A DNA stretch of 64,000 nt from the sequence record PP579741.1; one strand, written 5' to 3'. How positions within the stretch are numbered: position 1 is the first letter of the stretch; each line of letters begins with the position of its first letter. Made by a program: the position numbers and the translations under genes. The stretch is from Enterobacter phage KKP_3711. The notes under the pieces are model-generated. The model saw nothing but the letters and a program-made list of their open reading frames with translations, did no database searches and was not told the DNA's origin. Shown here piece after piece: positions 12,250 through 63,913 of the stretch.

Positions 12250-15200
12250 TGGCAACAACTACTCGTATAGTAATCCAGCAAGCTGTAAACTTAGATAAAA
12301 ATAATCTTACAGCTGGTAAGTATCCAAGATTCGTTGTGAGTCTTGGTTCTTCCATTACTGGTGTTACTATCAATGATTTAACAAACGCTATTCAGGAAAC
12401 AGCAGATAACGCAGCGGCTGCCGCTGCTTCTGCTACTGCTGCAAAAGCGTCTCAAGATGCTGCAAAAATTTCTGAGAATAATGCTCTAGCATCTCAGAAT
12501 GCTGCTAAAGCATCACAAACTGCGGCTAAAACGTCAGAAACAAATGCTAAGACTTCCGAGACTAACGCTAAAAATTCTGAAACTGCTGCAAAAACTGCTC
12601 AAACTGCTGCGGAACTAGCTGAAACAAACGCTGAGACTGCGGAAAGAAATGCTGCTGAAAGTGCTCGTTTAGCTAAAATATCCGAAACTAATGCTGCAAA
12701 CTCTGCTTCAGCTGCTGCTATTTCTGCAACTAACTCTTTTAACTCAGCAACACAATCTGCAACTTCAGCTACTAACTCTAAGAACTCTGCTGATGCTGCT
12801 GCTGCATCCGCTACTGCTGCTGCTAATAGTGCAACAAAAGCTGCTACTTCTGAAGATGAAGCTGCTGACCACGTAGTAGATGCTGCTGCCGAAGCTGATA
12901 GAGCTAAAGCAGAAGCTGATCGTGCACAATCCGTTGTTGATGCTGCTCTAGATGCTGAAGATATTGCGGGGTTCTATAAATCTTACAAGACTAAAGCTGA
13001 GGCTGATGCTGACGTTGCTAACCGTGTTGTTGATGAAGTAGTTCAGGTTTGGAATCAGACAGCTGCACAATATGGCTGGTATAAAGTAATTTCAACAAAC
13101 GGAACTAAATCTTTACAATTGGTTGAAACAGAGAATAAACTTATATCTGTTAATAACATTAAAGCAGACACTAATGGTAACGTACAGGTAACTATTCCTG
13201 GTGGTAATCCATCTCTGTGGCTTGGTGAAGTTACTCTGTTCCCATATAGAAGCACTGATACCGTTGGTTACTCTGGTATCCTTCTAGCGGATGGTCGTTT
13301 ACTTAACCGTGCAGATTATCCAGATTTATGGGCTTCTATTTCTGCTGGACTTATTCCTTCAGTTTCAGAAACTGAATGGCAAGCTGGTCAAAATCAGTTC
13401 TACTCTACAGGTAATGGAACAACGACTTTCCGTTTACCTAATATGCTTCAAGGTCAGGCTCTTCGTTCAGCCACAGCTGGTGAAACTGGCACTGGTGCCA
13501 TTAAGGCTCAGATCCCTTACATCACTACAGTTAACGGCAAAGCTCCTGCCGATGCTACCGGTGCTATAACATTAGCAATTGGCGATGTAGTATCTGGTGG
13601 TATTATCCCTATAGCTAATGGTGGTACAGGAGCTAATACTGCGGCAAATGCTAGAACTAATCTAGGGGTAGATCGTTTTTCTCAAGGTAGTACTGTTACT
13701 TATATTTACAGTGCAAATAACTCCCATACTGTACAGGTAGCTGACAATGGTTTGTGGGGATGCTACAAACAAGGAACTGGTTGGAATGCTTTAGGTATAG
13801 CCCAAGGCGGTACAGGAGCTCTTAATGCTGCTGATGCTAGAGTTAATCTAATTTTAGATAGACTTGTACAAACTTCAGCTAGTACAAACTTAAACTTCCC
13901 TACAAAAAATGCTGCATTAGTTCTTAGAGATTCAGATCTTGCTTGGGGTGTTTTTGATAATAGTGCAAATGCTTGGCAAGCTCTAGGCATTGGACAGGGC
14001 GGTACTGGTGGCAGAACTTCTTTAGAAGCACTAAATAATCTTGGTATTCCTGGTATTGGTAAAAGTTTTGGAGATGATGCTCCACTAAATGCTAACTCAA
14101 TAGCTATTAACGGTATTTTTGCAGGTGCAGGTGTTAATGGAGTTAACTGGGGACAGCAATATTCTCCTTTATTACATATGGTTAGATTTGCAGGTGGTGC
14201 ATCAGGCCAGATGCAGATTACTGGAGATGGTTATGTTTGGTTCCGTGGTAGTGCTAATGGTACTTCATGGACTGCTTGGAAATTAGCACTTCTAACCGGA
14301 GATTATGGTGTTGGACTTTCTGGTGAGTCTTTACCAGGATCTGATTGGGGTAGTAGATTCATATCTACATCTAATGCTAGTTCTGACTGGACTCCAGCAA
14401 ACGGTGCAGGTTTCCAAAGTTCTTATGCAAACAATCGTTCTGCTCAGCTGTGGATGAATACCTCTGGAGAATTATACGGACGTTTTAATATGTCTACCTC
14501 TCCACAAGCTACAAAAGCTGCATCTCCTTGGAAACGCTATTTAAATGAGTCCGATGTCTCTAATTTCTTTAGATCTGGTGGTAGTATTGGTACTGGCTCC
14601 CTTAATGTATTAAGAGGGGACTTATCTGGTGTTTATCTGCAAAGTATGAATGCTAATGCTACTCCTGCTTTAGGTTATTCCCCAAATATGCAAGCCGGTA
14701 GTTTACTAGTTCTTCAAAATGGCGCCAATGGTGCATATGGTGCTACACAGCTATATTTCAACTATTTAGGCTCTGGCGGGCTATTCTTCCGTAGATTATT
14801 AGCGTCTGATGGTGGTGCTGTAGAACCCGGCGGTAACGGAGCTGGCTGGAGAGAAATTTGCTCTAATAATGGTGATGTTTGTGGAGGAAGCACTCCAACT
14901 ATCACAGATTGGAATAGTTTTATACCTAACCATACTGGTTTTGGTTATGGAGGAGGTACTACAAACTCTCCTGGAACAAATGGTATAGTCAGAACAGATA
15001 GTAATCATAGATTTTATGAGTATAAGTCCCAGATAGCTCACGATTATGCTACCGGTAGAATGTTTATTAGAACATTCAATGCGGACTCTGTTAAAACTTG
15101 GACTGCTTGGAAAGAAGTTACAACTACTGCTGCTTCTGATGAAAACCTAAAAGAAATAAAAGGTGATTTAAACGTTGAAGGTGCATTAGACAATATAAAC

Positions 15201-36280: not shown

Positions 36281-36526
36281 TTATTCAAAATCATCGAAAC
36301 GCTCTTGGCTTTGGTGGTACTGTATTAGTTCAGAGATTGTTCTATAGGCTTTTTTCAAATCGTAAGGAATAGTGGTTGATAACCTAATAGTCCTATCTTT
36401 GTAAAGCCAGTCTGCAATATCTGGAATACGAGCCAATAAAGGCGGGACAACCCTACAAATAGGATCTCCCGCCTTTTTAGGTTTAGAGACTTTGGGACGT
36501 TTATACACAGGATCCCATTTACTCAA
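36281..36526 (-). CDS. hypothetical protein, 81 aa
   Basis: ORF only. Confidence 0.4.
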   Translation of the reverse strand: MSKWDPVYKRPKVSKPKKAGDPICRVVPPLLARIPDIADWLYKDRTIRLSTTIPYDLKKAYRTISELIQYHQSQERFDDFE

Positions 36527-39261
36527 ATTTCAGTCACCTCTTCTCCATGTGTATGGATATTTAACAGAGTTCTAGGAATACCAATACCTTCCTTAGCACA
36601 ATATATTTTAACCCATTCTACCACATGATCATATTCAAGATTATAACCAATACCTATTGAATACAGAACATGCGACAATCTACTAGCTTTATAATGAAAA
36701 CCAAAAGCGTGATAAAAACCTTTCTTATTACTAGAGATGTATTGACGCAATGCACCAATTTTATCTTTAGCTGCTCTGGCTTTCTTAATTAATGGGATAA
36801 TATATGATGCAGACTGCATTAACATAATAGCTCGTTCTTCAGGTCTATTTTTAACATACCACACCGCATCTTCCATTTCAATCTCTTCGACTGTCTTTTC
36901 TAGATACATTGCACACTTTTGTTTTTCTTCAAAAGCATTCTGGTACATTGGAATAATACCTTGAGCCTGTGAAGCCATAATAGCTTCCGCATGTTTAACT
37001 TTCTCGGCAGCTCGATTAGGTTTAATAATATCCCAATCTGCAATATCTGCCTTGCTGAGAATGTCTATCTCTGCACCCTGATCTGCTAACAAATAACGTA
37101 AAGTACCTGCATAGGCTTGAGATTCACGCAAATAACGAGCTTCCATAATTTCTTTAGAACCAGTTAATATTTCACCAATTCCACTGAAAATATCTTTTAA
37201 TGTAACCCCATCAATATAAGGACTACTACACTGTGGTGCCACATAATAACAGATAAACTTAGCTCCACGATCTCGACGAATTGCCTGGAATCGAACATAC
37301 GGAGTATGGATTGGAGTATCAGTTACAGAAAATACGTTATCAAAATACCTAAAGTCAACCCCGTTAGTAACACTTGGACTACAGATTAAACCAGCTACTT
37401 TCTGTTTGAGAAGCTCTTTGTTAGTATATTGCAGAATCTTTCTGTTTACTTTCTCTAGTGAAGAATCACTATGAATAGCTCGAACAACTCCTGAAAACTG
37501 TTCACAGATTACTTCTAGATACGCATTAATGGTACTAGGTCCTTCGGTTGTTACCATTAAGGACTTCTGACCAGCTACTAAAGATTCAAAGAACCATGTC
37601 CAAACTGCTTTAGATGTTGGAACTTCTACTGCGCGAACTCCATCAAGCATTTTACGATCATGAAGAATTAGATCGATATCTTTTTCATCTTCAATAATTT
37701 GAGAATATAATTTGATAGTTTCTTCTGATAAGTCACCATCTGCCAGAACAACATAAGTTGCACTGTTAATTAATTCTGCAAATGCTCGTAAAATCTGTGG
37801 ACGTCTTGCTTCGGTTAATGAAGATTTCAGAAGATCATTTAAGATTGCGTCTGCTTCATCCAAAAACAGAAAATCACAACCACATCCTAAAAGTCTATGA
37901 GTAGAATGAATTGTAATTGACAATCTCTCTACATCACCACTAGCGTATGCATCAGCACCACCATCAGAATATGATTCCATTCCTAGTTTTAAAGCATTTG
38001 CTTCTACTAGAGATACAGTGTTTGTAATTGCAACACATCGTTTACCAACTAATTCTGGAGATTTTAACCATTGAGCTACAGTATGAGTTTTACCAGACCC
38101 AAGACTGGCCTTAATAAACGTTAGTTTATGTTTGGCCGGAAGCTCTTTAATGTCAAGATAATTACCTTTAGCATTTGGTACAATTACATTAACACCAGGC
38201 ATACTAATTTCACGTTTCGCATTAGATACCCATGCATGAACTGCTGCTTTTCTGGCGTTATTAACATAATCTGCGGGAACTTTCTGTTTATCATTATCCA
38301 TTACATATCTTTCAATATGTGGTAGAATGGCTCTGTCCAATGCATCGAAAGAATAACCTTCGGCAAGAGCTTTATGATAAATACGAAGAATGTGACGAGT
38401 ATACCATTCATCACTTTGTTCTGGCAGATTTTCTAACTCACGTTCAAGAATTGGAGAAGGAGTTTTCTGGAAGTTAATTTTTCCATAAAGTTCAAACTCT
38501 TTATCTGTTACTCTGGAACGGTTATAGGTTTTCTCAATATCCCTGTAGTAATCAGGTGGAGTCATTTTTGCACCCTTACGTTTAATAAGGCGAGGCAAAT
38601 TCTCCACAACAAAGGGATCTTTACAACGTTGGAATGTCGGACTAGCAAAATATAGAATGTGAACGCGATGATAAAGTGAGGTATCTATTAATGCTTTCTT
38701 TGTTCCCATCTTTTCACGATACTCATTATTTAGAGATGCAAAAAGTTGCCCTAACTGAATAGGGTTCAAAGCAATATTGCTTTCTAAGAACATGTGTGCA
38801 CGAATACCTGACTTAATACCAGCAGATGCTGAGCCTTGAACAATATATCCTAAATCTTTAGGGAAAATGTCTGGACGTAAGTCATGCAAAATACTTGCAA
38901 TGTGTTCACCAACCTTATACATATTACAAGGGTTTACGGATGACTCTAGGTTATCGATGTCCAAACATACAATATTACTTTCCACCAGAGGTGAAAAAGC
39001 CTCGGATACCCTTCTTAATGAACTTGGGCTATCTCCGATATATCGTTCTCGAATTACAGCAACATCCTGTCGTCCCATGAGTGATTCTACAAAATCAAAC
39101 ATTTCGTCTAAAGATTCCGGATACACTTCATCCTCTAGCACAAACCTAGATACTTTGGGAACTGACTGGAGTTCTACATAGTTGCCACTGTTGTCCATAC
39201 CAAATTGTTTTGAAAACCTAGTATTATTACGACGACCCCAAGCTTTCAATAATGTAAACAC
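36523..39261 (-). CDS. replication-origin-binding-type SF2 helicase, 912 aa
   Basis: Walker A KASLGSGKTH, DEAD-like FLFLDEAD and a helicase C domain. Its size and position match the T5 protein annotated as a putative replication origin binding protein. Confidence 0.6.
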   Translation of the reverse strand: MFTLLKAWGRRNNTRFSKQFGMDNSGNYVELQSVPKVSRFVLEDEVYPESLDEMFDFVESLMGRQDVAVIRERYIGDSPSSLRRVSEAFSPLVESNIVCLDIDNLESSVNPCNMYKVGEHIASILHDLRPDIFPKDLGYIVQGSASAGIKSGIRAHMFLESNIALNPIQLGQLFASLNNEYREKMGTKKALIDTSLYHRVHILYFASPTFQRCKDPFVVENLPRLIKRKGAKMTPPDYYRDIEKTYNRSRVTDKEFELYGKINFQKTPSPILERELENLPEQSDEWYTRHILRIYHKALAEGYSFDALDRAILPHIERYVMDNDKQKVPADYVNNARKAAVHAWVSNAKREISMPGVNVIVPNAKGNYLDIKELPAKHKLTFIKASLGSGKTHTVAQWLKSPELVGKRCVAITNTVSLVEANALKLGMESYSDGGADAYASGDVERLSITIHSTHRLLGCGCDFLFLDEADAILNDLLKSSLTEARRPQILRAFAELINSATYVVLADGDLSEETIKLYSQIIEDEKDIDLILHDRKMLDGVRAVEVPTSKAVWTWFFESLVAGQKSLMVTTEGPSTINAYLEVICEQFSGVVRAIHSDSSLEKVNRKILQYTNKELLKQKVAGLICSPSVTNGVDFRYFDNVFSVTDTPIHTPYVRFQAIRRDRGAKFICYYVAPQCSSPYIDGVTLKDIFSGIGEILTGSKEIMEARYLRESQAYAGTLRYLLADQGAEIDILSKADIADWDIIKPNRAAEKVKHAEAIMASQAQGIIPMYQNAFEEKQKCAMYLEKTVEEIEMEDAVWYVKNRPEERAIMLMQSASYIIPLIKKARAAKDKIGALRQYISSNKKGFYHAFGFHYKASRLSHVLYSIGIGYNLEYDHVVEWVKIYCAKEGIGIPRTLLNIHTHGEEVTEI

Positions 39262-39278
39262 TAATATTTCCTTCCGGT

Positions 39279-39313
39279 GAAGAAAAATAAAGCCATAACA
39301 ACATTATTATGGC
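39279..39313 (-). terminator. rho-independent terminator on the - strand
   Basis: GCCATAA-N8-TTATGGC hairpin followed by TTTATTTTTCTTC on the - strand. It ends the ncRNA-like unit that starts at the promoter 40431-40459. Confidence 0.55.
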
Positions 39314-40423
39314 ATACACAAAAGAACTACCAATATACTCATTAATCGTGGGATTAATAGTACCCTGCTTTCTGGCTACGCATCATGCTGCATTGCACAA
39401 ACATGAAGAAGATCTAATATCTAGTTTCACCTTACTCGCACATCCACTTAATGGGTGTTTCTTAATTTCCAGTATAATCCGATATTTTGCGGTCGATGGT
39501 AGACAAACCTTGATTGATACTGTCCCATAACTTTAAGTGGGGAAGTTTCATGCACTGTTCCTTGTTAGTTATCACCCTAATCATGTATAACCACGCTCTT
39601 GAATTAGTCGACGGGGAAAGCCGGCAAGCATCTCTCCCTCAGTCCAGAACCTCAGATCCCATAGCTAGTACGACGTTTTCCTAAAGTGCTTTTAGGTCAG
39701 TCTTGGCATTCAGCACCGTCTCTTGCTTATCACATATATTCAGGGGTTCGCACCCTTCGTAAAGACAGTTATCATCCTAATAGGTATGAAAACTCTGCCC
39801 CTAATATGTAGCTCAGCTTTACTCCCAGTACTAGCGTGATCAGGCCAATTTTTCCTCCCATCCCGGTCGGCACGCCCCGTTGCTTATGGTCGGGGAAGAC
39901 TCGTGGGTTTCTGCGACTTGAATCGATCTTATCTTCTTCGAAATACTTCTGCACATCATTGTCCCACAGACTTACGAGAGGTCATTGAACGCCGAGTTAT
40001 GTTACGACGACAGAAGTATGCATACGCTTTAATATGCTGTTTTGTTAGGCTCCAGAGGCCGCCGGCACCACCGGTCGATCTGCTCCTCGGACTTGTAAGG
40101 TGTAAACACTCGAACGCATCCTCTAACCCACATGTGCGCTTGACTCTACAGCTTTTCACATGTACTTATCACCATTGCATCCCATGCTCAGGTCTTCAAT
40201 CCGTCCGTCTAGCAACTCGTCTCTCATTATTGGATTTGCGGTCGAATAATAAGTTCTTAGCTCTAGAGTTTCAGAAGGTCGTAAAGCTTTTCCCTCAGGT
40301 CTACTTTACAATTTTTGACTTATATAATTGGTTGAGTATGAAATAGCTCTACGATTGAATTAACCCCCGTAAGTGAGCACGTATTTCATAGAAATTTACT
40401 TTAGGTATAATCTCCTCAACTGA
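39285..40423 (-). ncRNA. candidate ~1.1 kb non-coding transcript (no plausible ORF, GC-elevated) between a T5-type promoter and a terminator
   Basis: Promoter at 40431-40459 (TTGCCA-N17-TATAAT with the conserved downstream element) and terminator at 39279-39313. Read by eye, the segment is about 48-52% GC against about 38% for the surrounding genome. Six-frame ORFs here are short and non-protein-like (Cys/His/Arg-rich). The longest - strand ORF with an ATG near the transcript start is 9 codons. Confidence 0.4.
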
Positions 40424-40430
40424 TACAAAT

Positions 40431-40459
40431 ATTATACCTAAAATTAATCTCATTGGCAA
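40431..40459 (-). promoter_or_regulatory. T5 early-type promoter on the - strand (TTGCCA-N17-TATAAT)
   Basis: -10 corresponds to plus 40431-40436 and -35 to plus 40454-40459. The transcribed-strand downstream sequence ATTTGTATCAGTTGAGGAG matches the downstream consensus of the other early promoters. Confidence 0.55.
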
Positions 40460-40489
40460 CTAAAATTTTAAAATGATGATCGGACAGCA

Positions 40490-40528
40490 TAAAAAGACCC
40501 TGTAAACCAATTTAGTCTACAGGGTCTA
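40490..40528 (-). terminator. rho-independent terminator on the - strand (10-bp stem)
   Basis: AGACCCTGTA-N13-TACAGGGTCT hairpin followed by TTTTTA on the - strand. It lies immediately upstream of promoter 40431-40459. Confidence 0.6.
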
Positions 40529-40534
40529 ACGGAT

Positions 40535-40741
40535 TTAAAAGGGTACTACCACTTTATCCAATGGATTGACATACAACCATTCAGCAGTGGTAGCGTAGAT
40601 AGTGTTAAAGTCACTGCCAAGGGCTTCTTTGTAACCTTTCAATCTGTATTGAAATCGATAACACCAAAAGCCTTCTTTATTCATGAATATATCCCACTCA
40701 CTTCTCATTACTGTACTTATCCATAAATTTGTCAAAAGCAA
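40535..40741 (-). CDS. hypothetical small protein, 68 aa
   Basis: ORF downstream of the Sir2-like gene. No motif. Confidence 0.35.
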   Translation of the reverse strand: MLLTNLWISTVMRSEWDIFMNKEGFWCYRFQYRLKGYKEALGSDFNTIYATTAEWLYVNPLDKVVVPF

Positions 40742-40857
40742 GCTGCCGGAGATGGGATTGTTCAGAATAAGAAATAATTAGACGAGTTTCTTCCATTGAA
40801 AGATTGAATCCATGTTCTAGTTTATTTTCTAATTCTCTAACTCTATATTCTAAAACC

Positions 40858-41670
40858 TCATTTATTGGCAATATATGGTCTCCCTTCTAAATGTGCTTCT
40901 ACTCGTTCAATAAACTCTGGATCGCTAAAAGCATCCACAGCACCCTTATACCAGTAAGGAATTCCTCGCTCCTCTAGCTGATACATATCACTACGAGTCA
41001 TACCAGCGTAATCTACTTCACTGGCTTTGGTACTATCATGATAGTTAACTACCATCAGTTTAGCACCTGTTCTGTTCAACACAGGGAACAGATCCCAATA
41101 GAAGTTAATTACTTGGTTAGACGCCCCAACGATAATAACCATGTCTTCACTAGTAATATCATCGAAAGTTTCGTACATATCTTTATACGCTGGAGCTGCT
41201 TCTCCAAAGAAGATAACGTTGGGTTTGCACCAGTCATAGTCATCTGGGTCAATCTCATTATAACCAACATCAATGACCTTTTTTTGTTGCGTAAATGCAT
41301 CTTGGACAACGATTTCTTTTAGATACCCATGGATGTGAAGCACTTTATCCCTTGGAATACCTGCACGCTCTAGCAAATCATCCACGTTAGTAGTAAGGTT
41401 AACTACTTTACCCAAAGGGTAGCGTTTATACCATTCTGCAATGCGTAGATGTGCTAGGTTAGGCTCTACAGAGGCAAGCTCCTGACGACGCTTGTTGTAG
41501 AACATATGGGTCTTATGGTAGAAATTGCCACGAAAGGCATGAATGTCACACACTTCTTCAATGTTATACTCATCCCACATAGCTTTACCAGTTGCAGTAT
41601 CCGTACGAAAAGCACGGATACCACTTTCTACACTAAGACCTGCCCCACTGATAAATAACACTCTACGCAT
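40858..41670 (-). CDS. Sir2-family (sirtuin-like) NAD-dependent protein, 270 aa, without the Zn ribbon
   Basis: GAGLSVESGIRAFR matches the sirtuin GAGIS.ESGIPDFR motif. Also present are P..AH..L, the TQNID-like TTNVDDLLERAG, HIHG, FFGE and a VGAS(T)..V C-terminal Rossmann motif. There is no CxxC...CxxC module. Confidence 0.65.
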   Translation of the reverse strand: MRRVLFISGAGLSVESGIRAFRTDTATGKAMWDEYNIEEVCDIHAFRGNFYHKTHMFYNKRRQELASVEPNLAHLRIAEWYKRYPLGKVVNLTTNVDDLLERAGIPRDKVLHIHGYLKEIVVQDAFTQQKKVIDVGYNEIDPDDYDWCKPNVIFFGEAAPAYKDMYETFDDITSEDMVIIVGASNQVINFYWDLFPVLNRTGAKLMVVNYHDSTKASEVDYAGMTRSDMYQLEERGIPYWYKGAVDAFSDPEFIERVEAHLEGRPYIANK

Positions 41671-59699: not shown

Positions 59700-59774
59700 G
59701 TTCCCTTAGCTCAATGGATAGAGCAGTTGCCTTCTAAGCAATAGATATAGGTTCGATTCCTATAGGGAATACCA
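59700..59774 (+). tRNA. tRNA-Arg (anticodon UCU)
   Basis: Cloverleaf folded by hand. Acceptor GTTCCCT / AGGGAAT, D-arm GCTC-AATGGATA-GAGC, anticodon stem GTTGC / GCAAT with loop CTTCTAA, T-arm ATAGG-TTCGATT-CCTAT, CCA encoded. The D-arm and anticodon loop closely resemble E. coli argU. Confidence 0.8.
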
Positions 59775-59787
59775 ATTTGAGGAAAAT

Positions 59788-59946
59788 ATGGCTAAGTATC
59801 AGTTTACTACTAAAGATGAAAAAACTACAGAAATTGAAGCAGATGTAGTTCGTAACGAAGGTGCTTCTACTGTCTTTTATAAAGAAGGATCTATTATCAA
59901 AATGGTTCCTGTAGAATCAATTGTTAATTTAGAAGTTGTAGAATAA
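59788..59946 (+). CDS. small hypothetical protein, 52 aa (below the ORF-track cutoff)
   Basis: ATG 59788 is preceded by a GAGGAAAAT SD. The ORF reads MAKYQFTTKDEKTTEIEADVVRNEGASTVFYKEGSIIKMVPVESIVNLEVVE and fills the gap between tRNA-Arg and the next gene. Confidence 0.4.
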   Translation: MAKYQFTTKDEKTTEIEADVVRNEGASTVFYKEGSIIKMVPVESIVNLEVVE

Positions 59947-59947
59947 T

Positions 59948-61009
59948 ATGGGTTATTACTTAACTCTGATATTAATCCCTGCATTTGTTGTTGTCTTATG
60001 TGCAAAATGGTTACTCCCACATAAGATCTCTATGAAAGAGTGGGGATTACAATTTCTAGGTTTAGTAGTCTCCACATTATTATGTGCTCTGTTTATTGGT
60101 ATCGCATCTTTTGCGAATACATATGATACAGAGATTCTTAATGGTTATGTAACCAGCAAGAAATCAGTTCATGTATCTTGTGAACATCAATACAAATGTG
60201 GAGAAACATGTTCCACAGATAGTAAAGGAAATCGTAGTTGCGTACCAATTTATTGTGATGAACATGCGTATGATGTTGATTGGGATGTTCATACTACTGT
60301 AGGTACATTTACTATCGATCGTGTTGATCGTCAAGGTTTACGCGAGCCAAAGAGATTCACAGATGTAAACATTGGTGAGTTTGCAGCTACTTCTCATTAT
60401 ACTAAAAACTATCTTCTAGTAGATAAAGGTCGCTTCGACACAGACGAGGCAATTGTAAAGAAATATGAAGGCAAAGTTCCTAAGTATCCTGATACTTTTG
60501 ATTACTATCGTTTTAATCGCGTAGTAAATACAACAGATCGTTCGTTTAATTATCTTAATGTATTTTTAAACAATAATCTGCGAGAGATGGGTGCTAGAAA
60601 GCAATTAAATATTATTGTAGTAGTTACAGAATATAGTGATGACTTCTACAATGCTCTGTATAAAGAATGGAACGGCGGTAAGAAGAACGATGTAATTCTC
60701 ATATATGGGATTGATTCTTCTAATAATATTAAGTGGTTTCGTTCAACATCTTTTGCAGATGGTCAAGATAATCGTGAGCTTCTCGCTAGACTGCGTTTAG
60801 AAACGCATGATCAGCAGCTTTCCCTTAATCTTGTACAAAAGCAGTTAAGTATTATTGATAAGAACTTTACTAGACTTCCTAATGAAACTTTCAGCTATAT
60901 CGATAGTTTCCAGGACACTTCTATCGGTCTTATTTTATTTTGTATGTTCTTTAACATACTAACTTCAATCGGTATTGCATATTATATGTATAAAGAGGAC
61001 GTAGCTTAA
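59948..61009 (+). CDS. membrane protein (N-terminal and C-terminal TM helices, Cys-rich extracytoplasmic segment), 353 aa
   Basis: Hydrophobic helices at the N-terminus (LTLILIPAFVVVLCAKWLL and FLGLVVSTLLCALFIGIASF) and at the C-terminus (IGLILFCMFFNILTSIGIAYYMY). A CEHQYKCGETCSTDSKGNRSCVPIYCDEH cluster is present. Translationally coupled to the LemA-like gene. Confidence 0.5.
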   Translation: MGYYLTLILIPAFVVVLCAKWLLPHKISMKEWGLQFLGLVVSTLLCALFIGIASFANTYDTEILNGYVTSKKSVHVSCEHQYKCGETCSTDSKGNRSCVPIYCDEHAYDVDWDVHTTVGTFTIDRVDRQGLREPKRFTDVNIGEFAATSHYTKNYLLVDKGRFDTDEAIVKKYEGKVPKYPDTFDYYRFNRVVNTTDRSFNYLNVFLNNNLREMGARKQLNIIVVVTEYSDDFYNALYKEWNGGKKNDVILIYGIDSSNNIKWFRSTSFADGQDNRELLARLRLETHDQQLSLNLVQKQLSIIDKNFTRLPNETFSYIDSFQDTSIGLILFCMFFNILTSIGIAYYMYKEDVA

Positions 61010-61581
61010 TGTCAAAAGGTTTGAAAATCACTCTGGTAATTCTTGGTGTATTGTTTGCTCTGGTAGTTGCCGTGGGTGCTACATTGTTTACTAGCTATAT
61101 TTCCGCAGTAAATGATGGTGCGCGTATGGAAGGTAATGTAGTTATGCTGAACCAAGATTCAGAAAACAAACTTTCCAACTATACATTGAAGATTCAAGAA
61201 AAAGTACAGATTCCAGAAATGTATGCCAAAGATCTGAAAGAAGTGATTCGTGCTACATTTGAAGGTCGATATGGTGCTGATGGTTCTAAAGCAGTAATGC
61301 AGTGGATCCAAGAACAAAATATTCAATTTGATTCTAGTCTTTATAAAGATCTGCAAGTAACTATTGAAGCTGGTCGAGATGAATTTCGTATCTCTCAAAC
61401 ATTAAAGTTACAAGCATGTCGTGATTATAAAGTTCAGTTGAATACTTTCTGGAAGGGTATGTGGTTAAAGTTTGCTGGCTATCCTAAAGAAAACTTAGCT
61501 GATGTATGTAAAGTTGTTTCTGACTCTCGTACTTCTGAGATTTTCAAGACTGGTAAACAAGAAGCCTTGAAATTCAATTGA
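61009..61581 (+). CDS. LemA-family membrane protein, 190 aa
   Basis: N-terminal TM helix (ITLVILGVLFALVVAVGATLF) followed by a ~160-aa helical domain. The size and layout are typical of LemA family proteins. Confidence 0.5.
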   Translation: MSKGLKITLVILGVLFALVVAVGATLFTSYISAVNDGARMEGNVVMLNQDSENKLSNYTLKIQEKVQIPEMYAKDLKEVIRATFEGRYGADGSKAVMQWIQEQNIQFDSSLYKDLQVTIEAGRDEFRISQTLKLQACRDYKVQLNTFWKGMWLKFAGYPKENLADVCKVVSDSRTSEIFKTGKQEALKFN

Positions 61582-61659
61582 TACACATGTAACACTTTGC
61601 AGTACGCCTGCGTTTCCTCTGGAAGCGCAGGCAATTAGATGAATTTATATAAAATTTTG

Positions 61660-61689
61660 CTTGCTTTTGCGCGTAAAATTTTATATAAT
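61660..61689 (+). promoter_or_regulatory. T5 early promoter (TTGCTT-N18-TATAAT) driving tRNA-Ser
   Basis: -35 at 61660-61665 and -10 at 61684-61689. The tRNA starts at 61704. Confidence 0.5.
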
Positions 61690-61703
61690 ATTTACTCAAA
61701 TTT

Positions 61704-61795
61704 GGAAGGATTCGCTAATTAGGTAAGCGAGCAGATTGCTAATCTGTCGGCTCTGAAATATGGGTTTATGGGTTCGAGTCCCATTCCTTCCGCCA
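61704..61795 (+). tRNA. tRNA-Ser (anticodon GCU), class II with long variable arm
   Basis: Acceptor GGAAGGA / TCCTTCC, anticodon stem GCAGA / TCTGT with loop TTGCTAA, ~20-nt variable arm, T-arm ATGGG-TTCGAGT-CCCAT, discriminator G and CCA encoded. Confidence 0.8.
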
Positions 61796-61844
61796 CTTTT
61801 AAAGTGTTGTTGCAAAATCTACAATATATTGGTATAGTAGAAAA

Positions 61845-62162
61845 ATGAACTTGCAAAACTTACTTGTGTATCATAAATCTCTAGTAGATTTGCTAGAGAA
61901 GATTGATGAAATGGGTGGTGCTTATGACCTTCTCCCAGAGGGTTATAAAATAGTTATTGATGGAAAGACTATATATCCTGCTTTTCAATTTGTTGATAAT
62001 GATGAAGTGCAGAAAGCAATACGATATGTAGCTAATCATTATGCACTACTAGGAGATCAATCAGGATTGAGTATGTTTAGTTTTTTAATACTGAACTGGG
62101 ACTCTATAAAATCTGGTGATCCAATTAAGATAGCAAATGTGTTAAATCAGTTAAAAATGTAG
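61845..62162 (+). CDS. hypothetical protein, 105 aa
   Basis: ORF with an SD-like AGAAAA sequence upstream. No motif. Confidence 0.45.
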   Translation: MNLQNLLVYHKSLVDLLEKIDEMGGAYDLLPEGYKIVIDGKTIYPAFQFVDNDEVQKAIRYVANHYALLGDQSGLSMFSFLILNWDSIKSGDPIKIANVLNQLKM

Positions 62163-62191
62163 TTGCTAAACACCTAATTTTCAAGTATAAT
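62163..62191 (+). promoter_or_regulatory. T5 early promoter (TTGCTA-N17-TATAAT)
   Basis: -35 at 62163-62168 and -10 at 62186-62191. The downstream sequence ATTTATATAAATTGTTGAGAAGGAAAG matches the conserved element. Confidence 0.6.
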
Positions 62192-62222
62192 ATTTATATA
62201 AATTGTTGAGAAGGAAAGTGAA

Positions 62223-62486
62223 ATGCAAAAAGAACTAACTGGTTTTGAAAAGAATTTTCTTAAGTCCTGGGTTACTTGGGATCAAGATGATTTAACATTC
62301 ATCTTTATTCAAGCAAAACTGACAGATCGTTTATACGCCATCTGTAAGTGCCTGGAAATGCCAGAAGGTGAAATAGATGTTAGTTTTGATTTAGAAAACC
62401 TGATTCTAGAAATCATGGTGTACAAAGCTAATGAAGATGGTAATATGATCTGGAATCAGCAATTGCCAGTAACACTTTCTGTATAA
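62223..62486 (+). CDS. hypothetical protein, 87 aa
   Basis: ORF with a GAAGGAAAG SD. Confidence 0.45.
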   Translation: MQKELTGFEKNFLKSWVTWDQDDLTFIFIQAKLTDRLYAICKCLEMPEGEIDVSFDLENLILEIMVYKANEDGNMIWNQQLPVTLSV

Positions 62487-62505
62487 TAAAAATTTGGGGG
62501 TTTAT

Positions 62506-62582
62506 TCCGTAAGTGGTAGCGGAGCTGACTGTAAATCAGTTACCTTCGGGTTCGGGTGGTTCGACTCCATCAACCCCCACCA
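62506..62582 (+). tRNA. tRNA-Tyr (anticodon GUA) with long variable arm
   Basis: Acceptor GGGGGTT / AACCCCC. The anticodon loop CTGTAAA is identical to E. coli tRNA-Tyr. The variable arm is TTACCTTCGGGTTCGGG, the T-arm GGTTCGACTCC, and CCA is encoded. Confidence 0.75.
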
Positions 62583-62589
62583 AATTAAT

Positions 62590-62666
62590 GCACCTATCGT
62601 CTAAGCGGTTTAGGACATGAGACTTTCAATCTCAAAATCGGAGTTCGATCCTCCGTAGGTGTACCA
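62590..62666 (+). tRNA. tRNA-Glu (anticodon UUC)
   Basis: Acceptor GCACCTA / TAGGTGT. The D-arm TCGTCTAAGCGGTTTAGGACA resembles E. coli tRNA-Glu. Anticodon stem TGAGA / TCTCA with loop CTTTCAA, T-arm GGAGTTCGATCCTCC, CCA encoded. Confidence 0.75.
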
Positions 62667-62672
62667 AATTTT

Positions 62673-62747
62673 AGGAGGGTAGTCTAAAGGTATGACAACG
62701 GCCTTTGACTCCGTTAATAGTAGGTTCGATTCCTCTCCCTCCTGCCA
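62673..62747 (+). tRNA. tRNA-Gln (anticodon UUG)
   Basis: Acceptor AGGAGGG / CCCTCCT. The anticodon stem ACGG(C) / (U)CCGT has a 31-39 C-U mismatch. The loop CTTTGAC has U33 and A37. T-arm GTAGGTTCGATTCCTCTC, discriminator G and CCA encoded. Confidence 0.55.
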
Positions 62748-62790
62748 ATTTTAAAGAACGCCCATCATCACCGCCAGTCGGCAGAAACAG

Positions 62791-62976
62791 ATGGGATATA
62801 TCATGAACTTAGATCAGATATATCGTCTTGGTTTCTATGCTGCTGTATCTGGATGTGAGTCCATTGATGATTGTCCTTATACGGACTTTGAAAGGGAAGA
62901 AAAGAGAGCATGGGTGCTCGGTTTCATCGAAGGGTTACGTCAGTTATGGTCTGATGGAACTAAGCACGATGAGTAA
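62791..62976 (+). CDS. ribosome modulation factor (Rmf)-like small protein, 57-61 aa
   Basis: GFYAAVSGCESIDDCPY...RAWVLGFIEG aligns with E. coli Rmf GYQAGIAGRSKEMCPY...SQWLGGWREA. The true start may be ATG 62803. Confidence 0.5.
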   Translation: MGYIMNLDQIYRLGFYAAVSGCESIDDCPYTDFEREEKRAWVLGFIEGLRQLWSDGTKHDE

Positions 62977-62998
62977 CTTAACTTACTAGGATTAAAAA

Positions 62999-63313
62999 AT
63001 GATTCATATTCTTCGAATTACTGGTAATTATGCAGATGAATTTGATGTTTTCGGTATGCATTCTATTACAGAAGAACAGGCACAGTTTCTAGTAGAGACT
63101 GAAGGCAGATGCTTCACCCATAATAAAGAAGAAATTTATTTTGGGACTAACGAGTGTGTCCAGTTGAATGATCTTCATATTGAACTAGACACTATTACTA
63201 CAGAAGAAGCAGAAATAGTAATGCGAGTACTGAATATTCCAGATTTATCTTATGGTCTAATTGATCTTACAGATATAATCGAAGAAGCAATGGAATCTTC
63301 CACCGATAGCTGA
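62999..63313 (+). CDS. hypothetical acidic protein, 104 aa
   Basis: ORF only. Confidence 0.45.
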   Translation: MIHILRITGNYADEFDVFGMHSITEEQAQFLVETEGRCFTHNKEEIYFGTNECVQLNDLHIELDTITTEEAEIVMRVLNIPDLSYGLIDLTDIIEEAMESSTDS

Positions 63314-63393
63314 GATGGATTAGCGCTTGCCTGAAAAGCTCGAGAGACTGGATCGTTACCAGTTTGGTGGACCACTTACTAACTAGAGGTATT

Positions 63394-63648
63394 ATGAATA
63401 ACCTATTCTTCATTTACTGTACAGATGATTGTCTTAAAAGACGAATATCTAAAGTTTACACATTTAAAACAGGTAAACAATACGTGTACGGTCGTGATGG
63501 TGAAGCAATACCTTTAGTACAACTTTCACGAGATTATATGTTTCTCGAACATTTTAATGAAGAGAACATAGCAAGTGTACATAATTGTCAGAATAGTCTG
63601 ACATGGTGGTACAAGAAACGTAAGAAAGGGATTAAATATGCACGATGA
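63394..63648 (+). CDS. hypothetical protein, ~84 aa
   Basis: ATG 63394 is preceded by an AGAGG SD. The ORF tool's 63364 start has none. Confidence 0.4.
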   Translation: MNNLFFIYCTDDCLKRRISKVYTFKTGKQYVYGRDGEAIPLVQLSRDYMFLEHFNEENIASVHNCQNSLTWWYKKRKKGIKYAR

Positions 63649-63808
63649 ATTCGACGGCTTTATTATCTCTGAAGAAAATTGGGGTGTTTAATATGAAATC
63701 TGGTTGCAATGAAATCGGCTACGGAGATGGTATTCGTAATGCTGAAGATGTAGACTTTTTCGTAGGTTTTGGTGAAGGTCTCTCTTCTACTGAATTAGTT
63801 TAAGTTTC

Positions 63809-63885
63809 TATCTCCCGAGTGTTACTGGACAGCACGCCGGTCTCCAAAACCGTGCAGTCAGGGTTCGAGTCCCTGGGGATTTGCC
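63809..63885 (+). tRNA. tRNA-Trp-like sequence (anticodon CCA) with a defective acceptor stem; possible pseudogene
   Basis: The anticodon arm GCACG-CCGGT-CTCCAAA-ACCGT is nearly identical to E. coli tRNA-Trp (CCGGT-CTCCAAA-ACCGG). D-arm GTGT-TACTGGACA-GCAC, T-arm CAGGG-TTCGAGT-CCCTG and a 3' GCCA are present. However the acceptor 5' ATCTCCC against 3' GGGATTT has two mismatches, and position 8 is G rather than U. Confidence 0.35.
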
Positions 63886-63913
63886 AAATTAATGAATTTA
63901 ATTAAAAACTCAT

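Follow-up and report, generated by a model that had tools for sequence, protein, structure and literature searches.

The window analysed here is a stretch of 64,000 nucleotides (nt) from Enterobacter phage KKP_3711 (sequence record PP579741.1), a phage classified as Kononvirus KKP3711 (Demerecviridae, Markadamsvirinae). Positions 39262-40534 of this window are free of genes and lie between a small open reading frame (ORF) of 68 amino acids (aa; 40535-40741, - strand) and a 912-aa gene that encodes a D2-like replication helicase (36523-39261, - strand). An initial annotation, made from the sequence of the window, had proposed that this region is a non-protein element, probably a structured RNA. 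Our comparison of five diverged copies bears this out, both by covariation and by the absence of a coding signal, and we are highly confident that the region specifies a real, conserved, structured non-coding RNA. As far as sequence searches reach, the RNA is a new family, so far restricted to Kononvirus and four neighbouring lineages. Our best explanation as a whole further includes that the RNA is an autonomous molecule acting in trans, a view that we hold with somewhat more belief than doubt.

A conserved core with a covarying fold

Relatives of the element were recovered through the neighbouring helicase protein in a large protein collection, in which the corresponding cluster comprised Enterobacter phage KKP_3711 and phage contigs from Salmonella enterica assemblies. 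One of these contigs (L012) encodes the KKP_3711 form of the helicase and matched the window with 100% identity over a compared length of 1321 nt, which takes in the whole element. The diverged relatives L011, L002, L003 and L004 (the last being identical to L005) showed helicase protein identities of 92%, 80%, 79% and 75%, respectively, and all four contain a gap of 1.3-1.6 kilobases (kb) without genes between Sir2 and the helicase gene. When aligned, these gaps exhibit a common organization, with a kept upstream terminator and promoter followed by a core of invariant blocks (in DNA letters, for example CTCGTAAGnnTGTGGnnCAATGATGT, AGATAAGATyGATTCAAGT, GAGTCTTCCCCGACnnTAAGCAACGGGGC and GACCGGrATGGrAG) that are split by diverged segments. 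Compared pairwise, the cores of the four most diverged copies show 47-68% identity, and for L011 the value is 86%. The RNA is under purifying selection, its identity to the window copy being 0.86 in L011, 0.72 in L002, 0.61 in L003 and 0.60 in L004, compared to 0.61, 0.51, 0.47 and 0.42 at the 4-fold degenerate sites of the adjacent gene. The linkers flanking the core are not conserved and vary in length, from roughly 20 to 100 nt on the 5' side and from roughly 100 to 410 nt on the 3' side; in L002, L003 and L004, 350-400 nt of poorly conserved sequence separate the core from the helicase gene.

To search for covarying helices across relatives, as had been recommended in the initial annotation, we used RNAalifold on four copies (window, L002, L003 and L004), holding out L011, and derived a consensus fold for the ~960-nt core (40321-39358, - strand) that comprises 188 pairs arranged in 34 helices. 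In this alignment, 96.1% of the cells in this fold are standard pairs, compared to 35-42% when the 3' partners were slid by 1-3 columns, and 91 of the 188 pairs are compensatory, compared to 8-17 in the slid controls. Not one of 500 column shuffles reached the observed values on any measure, and at least one compensatory pair is present in 29 of the 34 helices. Because the fold came from the same alignment on which it was first scored, we used the held-out L011 sequence as a test. In this copy, 95.2% of the pairs are canonical, as against 36-41% in the slid arrangement. Relative to the window, 17 double substitutions in L011 keep pairing and 1 breaks it; among the single substitutions, 10 keep pairing and 5 break it. 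Canonical pairs are more numerous on the promoter strand (172-183) than on the opposite one (145-168), owing to the G.U pairs, of which there are 16-28 per copy, and the transcribed strand is thus the functional one. A strict scan aimed at pseudoknots, in which additional helices had to be all-canonical and covarying, returned just weak candidates of 4 base pairs (bp).

Absence of coding capacity

The view that the region holds no credible ORF was upheld. We found just ORFs of 30-147 aa on both strands, none with a meaningful Pfam match; for the 147-aa ORF on the + strand, the single listed match falls below the Pfam cut-off. A 9-codon ORF near the 5' end of the transcript, which had been pointed out before, does exist (MKYVLTYGG*), and it is not conserved, because the leader that carries it is largely deleted or replaced in the relatives. 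The homologous regions of the relatives were likewise inspected for coding potential: they share no ORF, and such short ORFs as occur agree neither in position nor in frame or sequence. Variable sites make up nearly the same fraction of each of the three codon phases (0.59, 0.61 and 0.61), showing no 3-periodicity, only 1 of 57 alignment gaps has a length divisible by three, and stop codons are abundant in every frame. Given the missing periodicity, the gap lengths, the stops in all frames and the lack of a shared ORF, we rejected a protein-coding explanation.

Anatomy of the transcription unit

The promoter and the two terminators that had been predicted on the - strand were all found, and together with the consensus fold they define the following parts, given in the direction of transcription:

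40485-40527, - strand: upstream intrinsic terminator with a 15-bp stem (40527-40495) and a T-run, ending the transcript of the preceding small gene
40431-40459, - strand: sigma-70-type early promoter, TTGCCA-N17-TATAAT, agreeing with 11 of 12 consensus positions in a consensus scan
40322-40424, - strand: variable 5' leader of ~100 nt, largely deleted or replaced in L002, L003, L004 and L011
39358-40321, - strand: structured core of ~964 nt, closed by the long-range helix H1 (40321-40318 with 39361-39358)
40171-40311, - strand: 5' domain, helices H2-H7, with compensatory pairs in H2 (6 of 9), H5 (5 of 9) and H6 (3 of 4), then the invariant GACGGAUUGAA
40078-40170, - strand: variable segment with a lineage-specific hairpin, a palindrome around 40122-40143
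39943-40077, - strand: helices H8-H12, with the invariant loop UAAAGC (H9) and the block CUCGUAAGnnUGUGGnnCAAUGAUGU; H10 is compensatory at 6 of 10 pairs, H12 mostly invariant
39601-39936, - strand: central multi-branched domain, helices H13-H28, the most conserved part
39373-39593, - strand: 3' domains, helices H29, H30, H31-H33 and H34, with compensatory pairs in H29 (5 of 10), H33 (5 of 10), H31 (3 of 5) and H34 (4 of 8), followed by a short tail and the terminator
39282-39313, - strand: downstream intrinsic terminator with a 9-bp stem (39313-39292) containing 3 GC pairs, then TTTATTTTTC
36523-39261, - strand: D2-like gene, 912 aa, homolog of T5 D2 ('replication origin binding', UL9-like helicase)

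The central domain has a mean column identity of 77% and contains the invariant blocks AGAUAAGAUyGAUUCAAGU, GAGUCUUCCCCGACnnUAAGCAACGGGGC and GACCGGrAUGGrAG. Its helices H15, H19, H20, H22, H23, H27 and H28 are supported by covariation. A covariance model of this domain (84 pairs, 6 branch points) detected exactly one copy in each genome of the clade, with scores of 341-376 bits. The many blocks of the RNA that are both invariant and unpaired suggest tertiary contacts or ligand surfaces. The hairpin of the variable segment is present in the window and in L002, where its stems differ in a compensatory manner (ACAUGUG/CACAUGU against AUGAAUG/CAUUCAU), and is deleted in L003 and L004. An extra 3' module is found between the core and the terminator in L011 (3774-3940) and L002 (5590-5700), with a repeated AAGTCCCTCGYGC motif and a CCCTGAAYAAGG block common to the two copies. 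This module has been lost from the window, and the RNA therefore has optional peripheral domains.

The promoter is kept in every diverged relative (L002, L003, L004 and L011), as is the upstream terminator, the latter with compensatory changes in its stem. A promoter profile scan retrieved ~20 further copies of the same family in the window, sharing an A/T-rich upstream part, TTGCnA, N17, TATAATATTT and a downstream ...TTGAnGAG. With so many copies of one type, the promoter of the RNA represents a standard early promoter of KKP_3711. The copies of this family span positions 23493-63958. As far as ~44.7 kb they are oriented on the - strand and from there onwards on the + strand, an arrangement that implies divergent early transcription in two blocks, with their meeting point near 44.7 kb. 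By analogy with T5 early promoters, transcription of the element should start near 40424 on the - strand, and, going by the quality of the promoter, it would be strong, as had been claimed. At the other end, the downstream terminator lies ~30 nt ahead of the GTG start of the D2-like gene. L011 carries a near-identical terminator at the same place, a single base in the loop being different, and L002 and L003 have terminator-like hairpins at other positions downstream of the core, such that a terminator was found in 4 of 5 lineages.

The promoter region also contains a 21-nt inverted repeat with 86% complementarity (40391-40411 with 40431-40451), one arm of which covers the -10 region, the other transcript positions of roughly +13 to +33. 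In L002 there is an equivalent repeat in which both arms have changed to match (GATATAAT...ATTATATC against GGTATAAT...ATTATACC). The repeat could serve as an operator or as a regulatory hairpin at the DNA level.

The element had further been described as about 10 points richer in guanine and cytosine (GC) than its flanks, and the actual excess of 7-11 points is close to this estimate. GC content amounts to 45.2% in the core and 43.1% in the whole transcript, compared to 37.8% in the window and 36.7% in the downstream gene, and peaks at 0.49 in a sliding window.

The RNA occupies the leader of the D2-like gene

The D2-like protein matches phrog_3712 (E = 3e-202) and, weakly, the Pfam family Herpes_ori_bp, and its identity to homologs among 50,697 phage records, which are those of Demerecviridae, is only ~35%. 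The biochemistry of T5 D2 has been described (PMC3632103). In the curated record of T5, a terminator and a promoter are followed by an untranslated stretch of 471 nt and by T5.108 (D2), and phage SPC35 shows the same order with a leader of ~290 nt; the promoters of both phages belong to the same family as that of KKP_3711. Since promoter, leader and D2 occupy the same slot in T5 and SPC35, the KKP_3711 RNA sits in a greatly expanded D2 leader. The resemblance thus extends to the slot, the order of elements and the promoter family. The T5-type leaders differ from the KKP_3711 RNA in being 290-470 nt long, in their ordinary GC content of 36.5%, in that their first ~128 nt alone are conserved across Tequintaviruses and in their weak covariation. 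We rejected homology between these leaders and the RNA, given that nothing was detectable even with nhmmer --max. Because the T5-type leaders are not homologous, we regard the RNA as a lineage-specific acquisition in the D2-leader slot.

The T5-type D2 leaders (L001, 4065-4356, - strand; L007, 14-420; L014, 1507-1800) have a feature of their own, namely a strongly conserved promoter-proximal region. It contains one hairpin with the invariant sequence UUAGUAAAA...UUUUGCUAA and a second one showing a few compensatory changes. This region is kept even in the distant metagenomic relative L007 and is unannotated in T5. It may constitute a small cis-regulatory element of D2 in Tequintaviruses.

Searches for known families and further copies

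A covariance search against Rfam, which the initial annotation had called for, was carried out with cmscan and all 4227 models of Rfam 15, with E<=10 for window positions 38500-41500 and E<=1 for L002-L004. It yielded no family match, tmRNA and RNase P included. In the window, there were chance-level matches alone, mainly to miRNA-like models over the promoter inverted repeat, which is the source of these spurious matches; in the relatives, the distant T5-like phages and T5, no match was relevant. In particular, GOLLD, ROOL, OLE, HEARO, raiA, RNase P, tmRNA and the small ribozymes were not matched, at the sensitivity of those models, and at the thresholds given above neither were the group I (Intron_gpI) and group II (Intron_gpII, group-II-D1D4) intron models.

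Nucleotide comparisons, likewise recommended, had the same outcome. Blastn gave no match in the 50,697 phage records in near and distant modes, nor in E. coli genomes and plasmids in distant mode. Exact scans with three invariant blocks found no genuine copy in IMG/VR, where the single matches L006 and L013 were dismissed as chance on the basis of nhmmer and blastn, and scans with two invariant blocks found none in JGI metagenomes and GTDB genomes. A peptide-pattern search for D2-like proteins in IMG/VR was equally negative. With the covariance model of the central domain, neither a paralog in the window nor a copy in the distant T5-like loci was detected. Searches of the accessible literature for KKP 3711, Kononvirus, non-coding RNAs of T5 and large phage RNAs returned no account of the element.

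Comparison with known large RNAs

To our knowledge, very few natural RNAs of such size and complexity exist outside ribosomes and introns. Among phage and prophage RNAs, GOLLD and ROOL are giant 'ornate' RNAs that form RNA-only cages, as seen by cryo-electron microscopy, and are expressed in lytic growth (PMC12286853). Like these, the KKP_3711 RNA is phage-encoded, non-coding and large and has an elaborate fold supported by covariation. The likeness is one of kind and not of relatedness. GOLLD and ROOL measure 600-800+ nt and have no known protein partner or function. The KKP_3711 core, in contrast, is longer (~960 nt), matches no Rfam model and resides in the leader of a replication helicase, within a narrow clade of enterobacterial T5-family phages.

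ORF-less group II introns are comparable to the RNA in length, in their multi-domain fold around a central closing helix and in their purine-rich transcript. Unlike them, the KKP_3711 unit has its own promoter, lacks exons and shows no match to domains V/VI or D1-D4. OLE and HEARO resemble it as large, highly structured RNAs defined by covariation, with functions that are unclear or that involve a ribonucleoprotein. However, their partner genes (oap and IS605-type TnpB/IscB, respectively) are not seen near the KKP_3711 RNA, the neighbours of which are Sir2, small ORFs and the D2 helicase.

A function for GOLLD and ROOL is still lacking, and their sources are mostly hosts or metagenomes that are hard to handle. 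The KKP_3711 RNA is larger and belongs to a cultured, strictly lytic phage with genetically tractable relatives, near-identical phage contigs being present in Salmonella assemblies. Its position in the leader of a replication-initiator helicase offers a concrete hypothesis and could, for the first time, tie such a giant RNA to one particular step in the infection.

Mode of action and alternative explanations

In the explanation that we prefer, host RNA polymerase would start at the early promoter near 40424 on the - strand and synthesize the variable ~100-nt leader and then the ~960-nt core (40321-39358), which would fold into at least 34 helices with its ends paired. Most transcripts would end at the modest terminator at 39313-39292, the rest continuing into the D2-like helicase gene, and the RNA would be set free by this terminator or by processing. 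The core should accumulate early in infection as an autonomous folded RNA. Its three-dimensional shape would be what makes it work, offering a scaffold or binding platform to a protein or to further molecules of the same RNA. We favour an autonomous RNA because the core is self-closing and flanked by non-conserved linkers of variable length, and because its many invariant unpaired blocks go along with a complexity several times that of known cis-regulators. We know of no cis-regulatory leader, considering the sizes of riboswitches and T-boxes, that approaches the complexity of the core. A more far-reaching proposal is that the RNA founds a new class of giant phage RNA machines, forming an RNA-only higher-order particle or acting as a catalyst, and that the phage employs it at an early stage of infection, where co-transcription with D2 might couple it to the onset of replication; we offer it tentatively, as a conceivable outcome that we do not expect.

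Several observations weigh against an autonomous, trans-acting RNA. Synthesis of the RNA, its release as a discrete species and its activity in trans are inferred, transcription being predicted from promoter and terminator signals, and the predicted downstream terminator is weak, with its three GC pairs, L004 having no obvious terminator downstream of the core. Our structural evidence comes from five distinct sequences that all belong to one clade, four of which served to derive the fold, and this sampling puts formal covariation statistics of the R-scape type out of reach. Moreover, in minimum free energy the central domain does not surpass shuffled sequences (z = +0.89; z = +0.02 for the opposite strand), so that the evidence for structure is comparative and not one of stability. 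GOLLD and ROOL often, though not obligatorily, lie beside tRNA islands, whereas the KKP_3711 RNA is ~20 kb away from the tRNAs. Finally, the promoter is syntenic with the D2-gene promoter of T5, annotated upstream of T5.108, and with that of SPC35, and is hence not unique to the RNA. The initial description of a 'dedicated' element has to be qualified accordingly. In the window and in L011, the helicase gene has no conserved separate promoter and is probably, as the arrangement of signals suggests, expressed by read-through from the promoter of the RNA. With a syntenic promoter and a helicase gene that lacks its own, a cis role for the replication operon is a real alternative.

This main rival holds that the RNA acts in cis, as a giant 5' leader of the D2/replication operon that controls how much transcription or translation reaches the helicase, be it through an effect on the terminator 30 nt ahead of the start codon, by shielding the 5' end of the mRNA from RNases or by sensing a factor. 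It draws on the shared layout of terminator, promoter, leader (290-470 nt) and D2 in T5 and SPC35 with promoters of the same family, on the terminator placed directly ahead of the D2-like start in the window and L011, and on the conserved promoter-proximal hairpin region common to the T5-type leaders. Those leaders are, however, not homologous to the core and have a covariation term of about zero, and a 960-nt core of 34 helices is several times bigger than the leaders and riboswitches that we are aware of. The core, moreover, closes on itself via H1 and is separated from the gene by a non-conserved spacer that varies in length between 100 and 410 nt. As the spacer is not conserved and the terminators lie at different positions, there is no conserved expression platform. 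We therefore judge a cis-acting leader to be unlikely, if still worth serious attention.

An anti-defence RNA, a decoy or sponge that would bind an immune protein or nuclease of the host at an early stage of infection and inactivate it, is compatible with our best explanation as a specific form of the proposed binding platform, and the early-type promoter, the clade-restricted and apparently recent acquisition and accessory-type neighbours such as Sir2 would fit such a role. Searches with Rfam and ARAGORN revealed no CRISPR repeats, retron msr/msd or tRNA-like parts, however, and we consider this reading improbable. We assign a slightly lower standing still to the idea that the region is a replication origin with a priming or DNA-opening transcript, of the ColE1 RNA II or T4 origin type. 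The region does lie immediately upstream of the gene for a UL9-like 'origin binding' helicase, and a strong promoter fires through it. Because the origins of T5 are multiple and unmapped (PMC3632103), no known origin speaks against such a reading. Yet we found short two-copy matches in place of iterons or convincing repeated binding sites, the region is GC-richer than the rest of the genome and not an AT-rich unwinding element, and T5 and SPC35 do without the element at the same position. The 34 covarying helices with their G.U pairs also reflect selection on a folded RNA, beyond the needs of priming. Both roles, decoy and origin or priming transcript, had been suggested in the initial annotation, and neither is supported, each keeping a small probability. 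Its further suggestion of a degenerate group I intron or homing-element relic found no support, and we regard the relic of a self-splicing intron (group I or II) or of another mobile ribozyme, decayed and without its ORF, as very improbable. Although the size and the multi-domain fold are within the range of ORF-less group II introns and the relatives have homing-endonuclease genes elsewhere in the module, no group I, group II or ribozyme model of Rfam matched the window (E<=10) or three relatives (E<=1). The promoter lies within the unit, at its 5' edge together with the upstream terminator, the upstream small ORF and the D2 gene are both complete, there being no split exons on either side, and purifying selection is strong.

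Neighbouring genes and further observations on the clade

Two small overlapping ORFs (40535-40871) directly precede the RNA unit. One, of 57 aa, is kept in L002; the other, of 68 aa, gave a match to phrog_5116 (function unknown), and its 3' end can be aligned with L003 ahead of the terminator. If the RNA has a protein partner, these two ORFs are the closest candidates. The tRNA genes of the window, six in number (Arg, Ser, Tyr, Glu, Gln and Trp), form a cluster at 59700-63886 on the + strand.

A helicase protein with 99.8% identity has been deposited as a Salmonella enterica 'hypothetical protein' from contigs of 110-111 kb (EAT0097265.1, EBX7861904.1). Public Salmonella assemblies thus contain complete genomes of the phage, which suggests that Salmonella, besides Enterobacter, is also a host.

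The Sir2 gene (40858-41670) is ~75% identical at the DNA level to Tequintavirus Sir2 genes, compared to a protein identity of ~35% for the D2-like helicase, a contrast that suggests mosaic ancestry or a recent exchange of the Sir2 module. In two of the relatives, we also observed genes of the homing-endonuclease type (T5orf172/MUG113, GIY-YIG and HNH), located at 143-808 and 12464-13159 in L003 and at 13047-13571 and 14485-14736 in L004. They are inserted around the NrdD gene and split DNA ligase genes, and the same places are empty in the other copies. This pattern of presence and absence indicates that mobile endonucleases are active in the clade.

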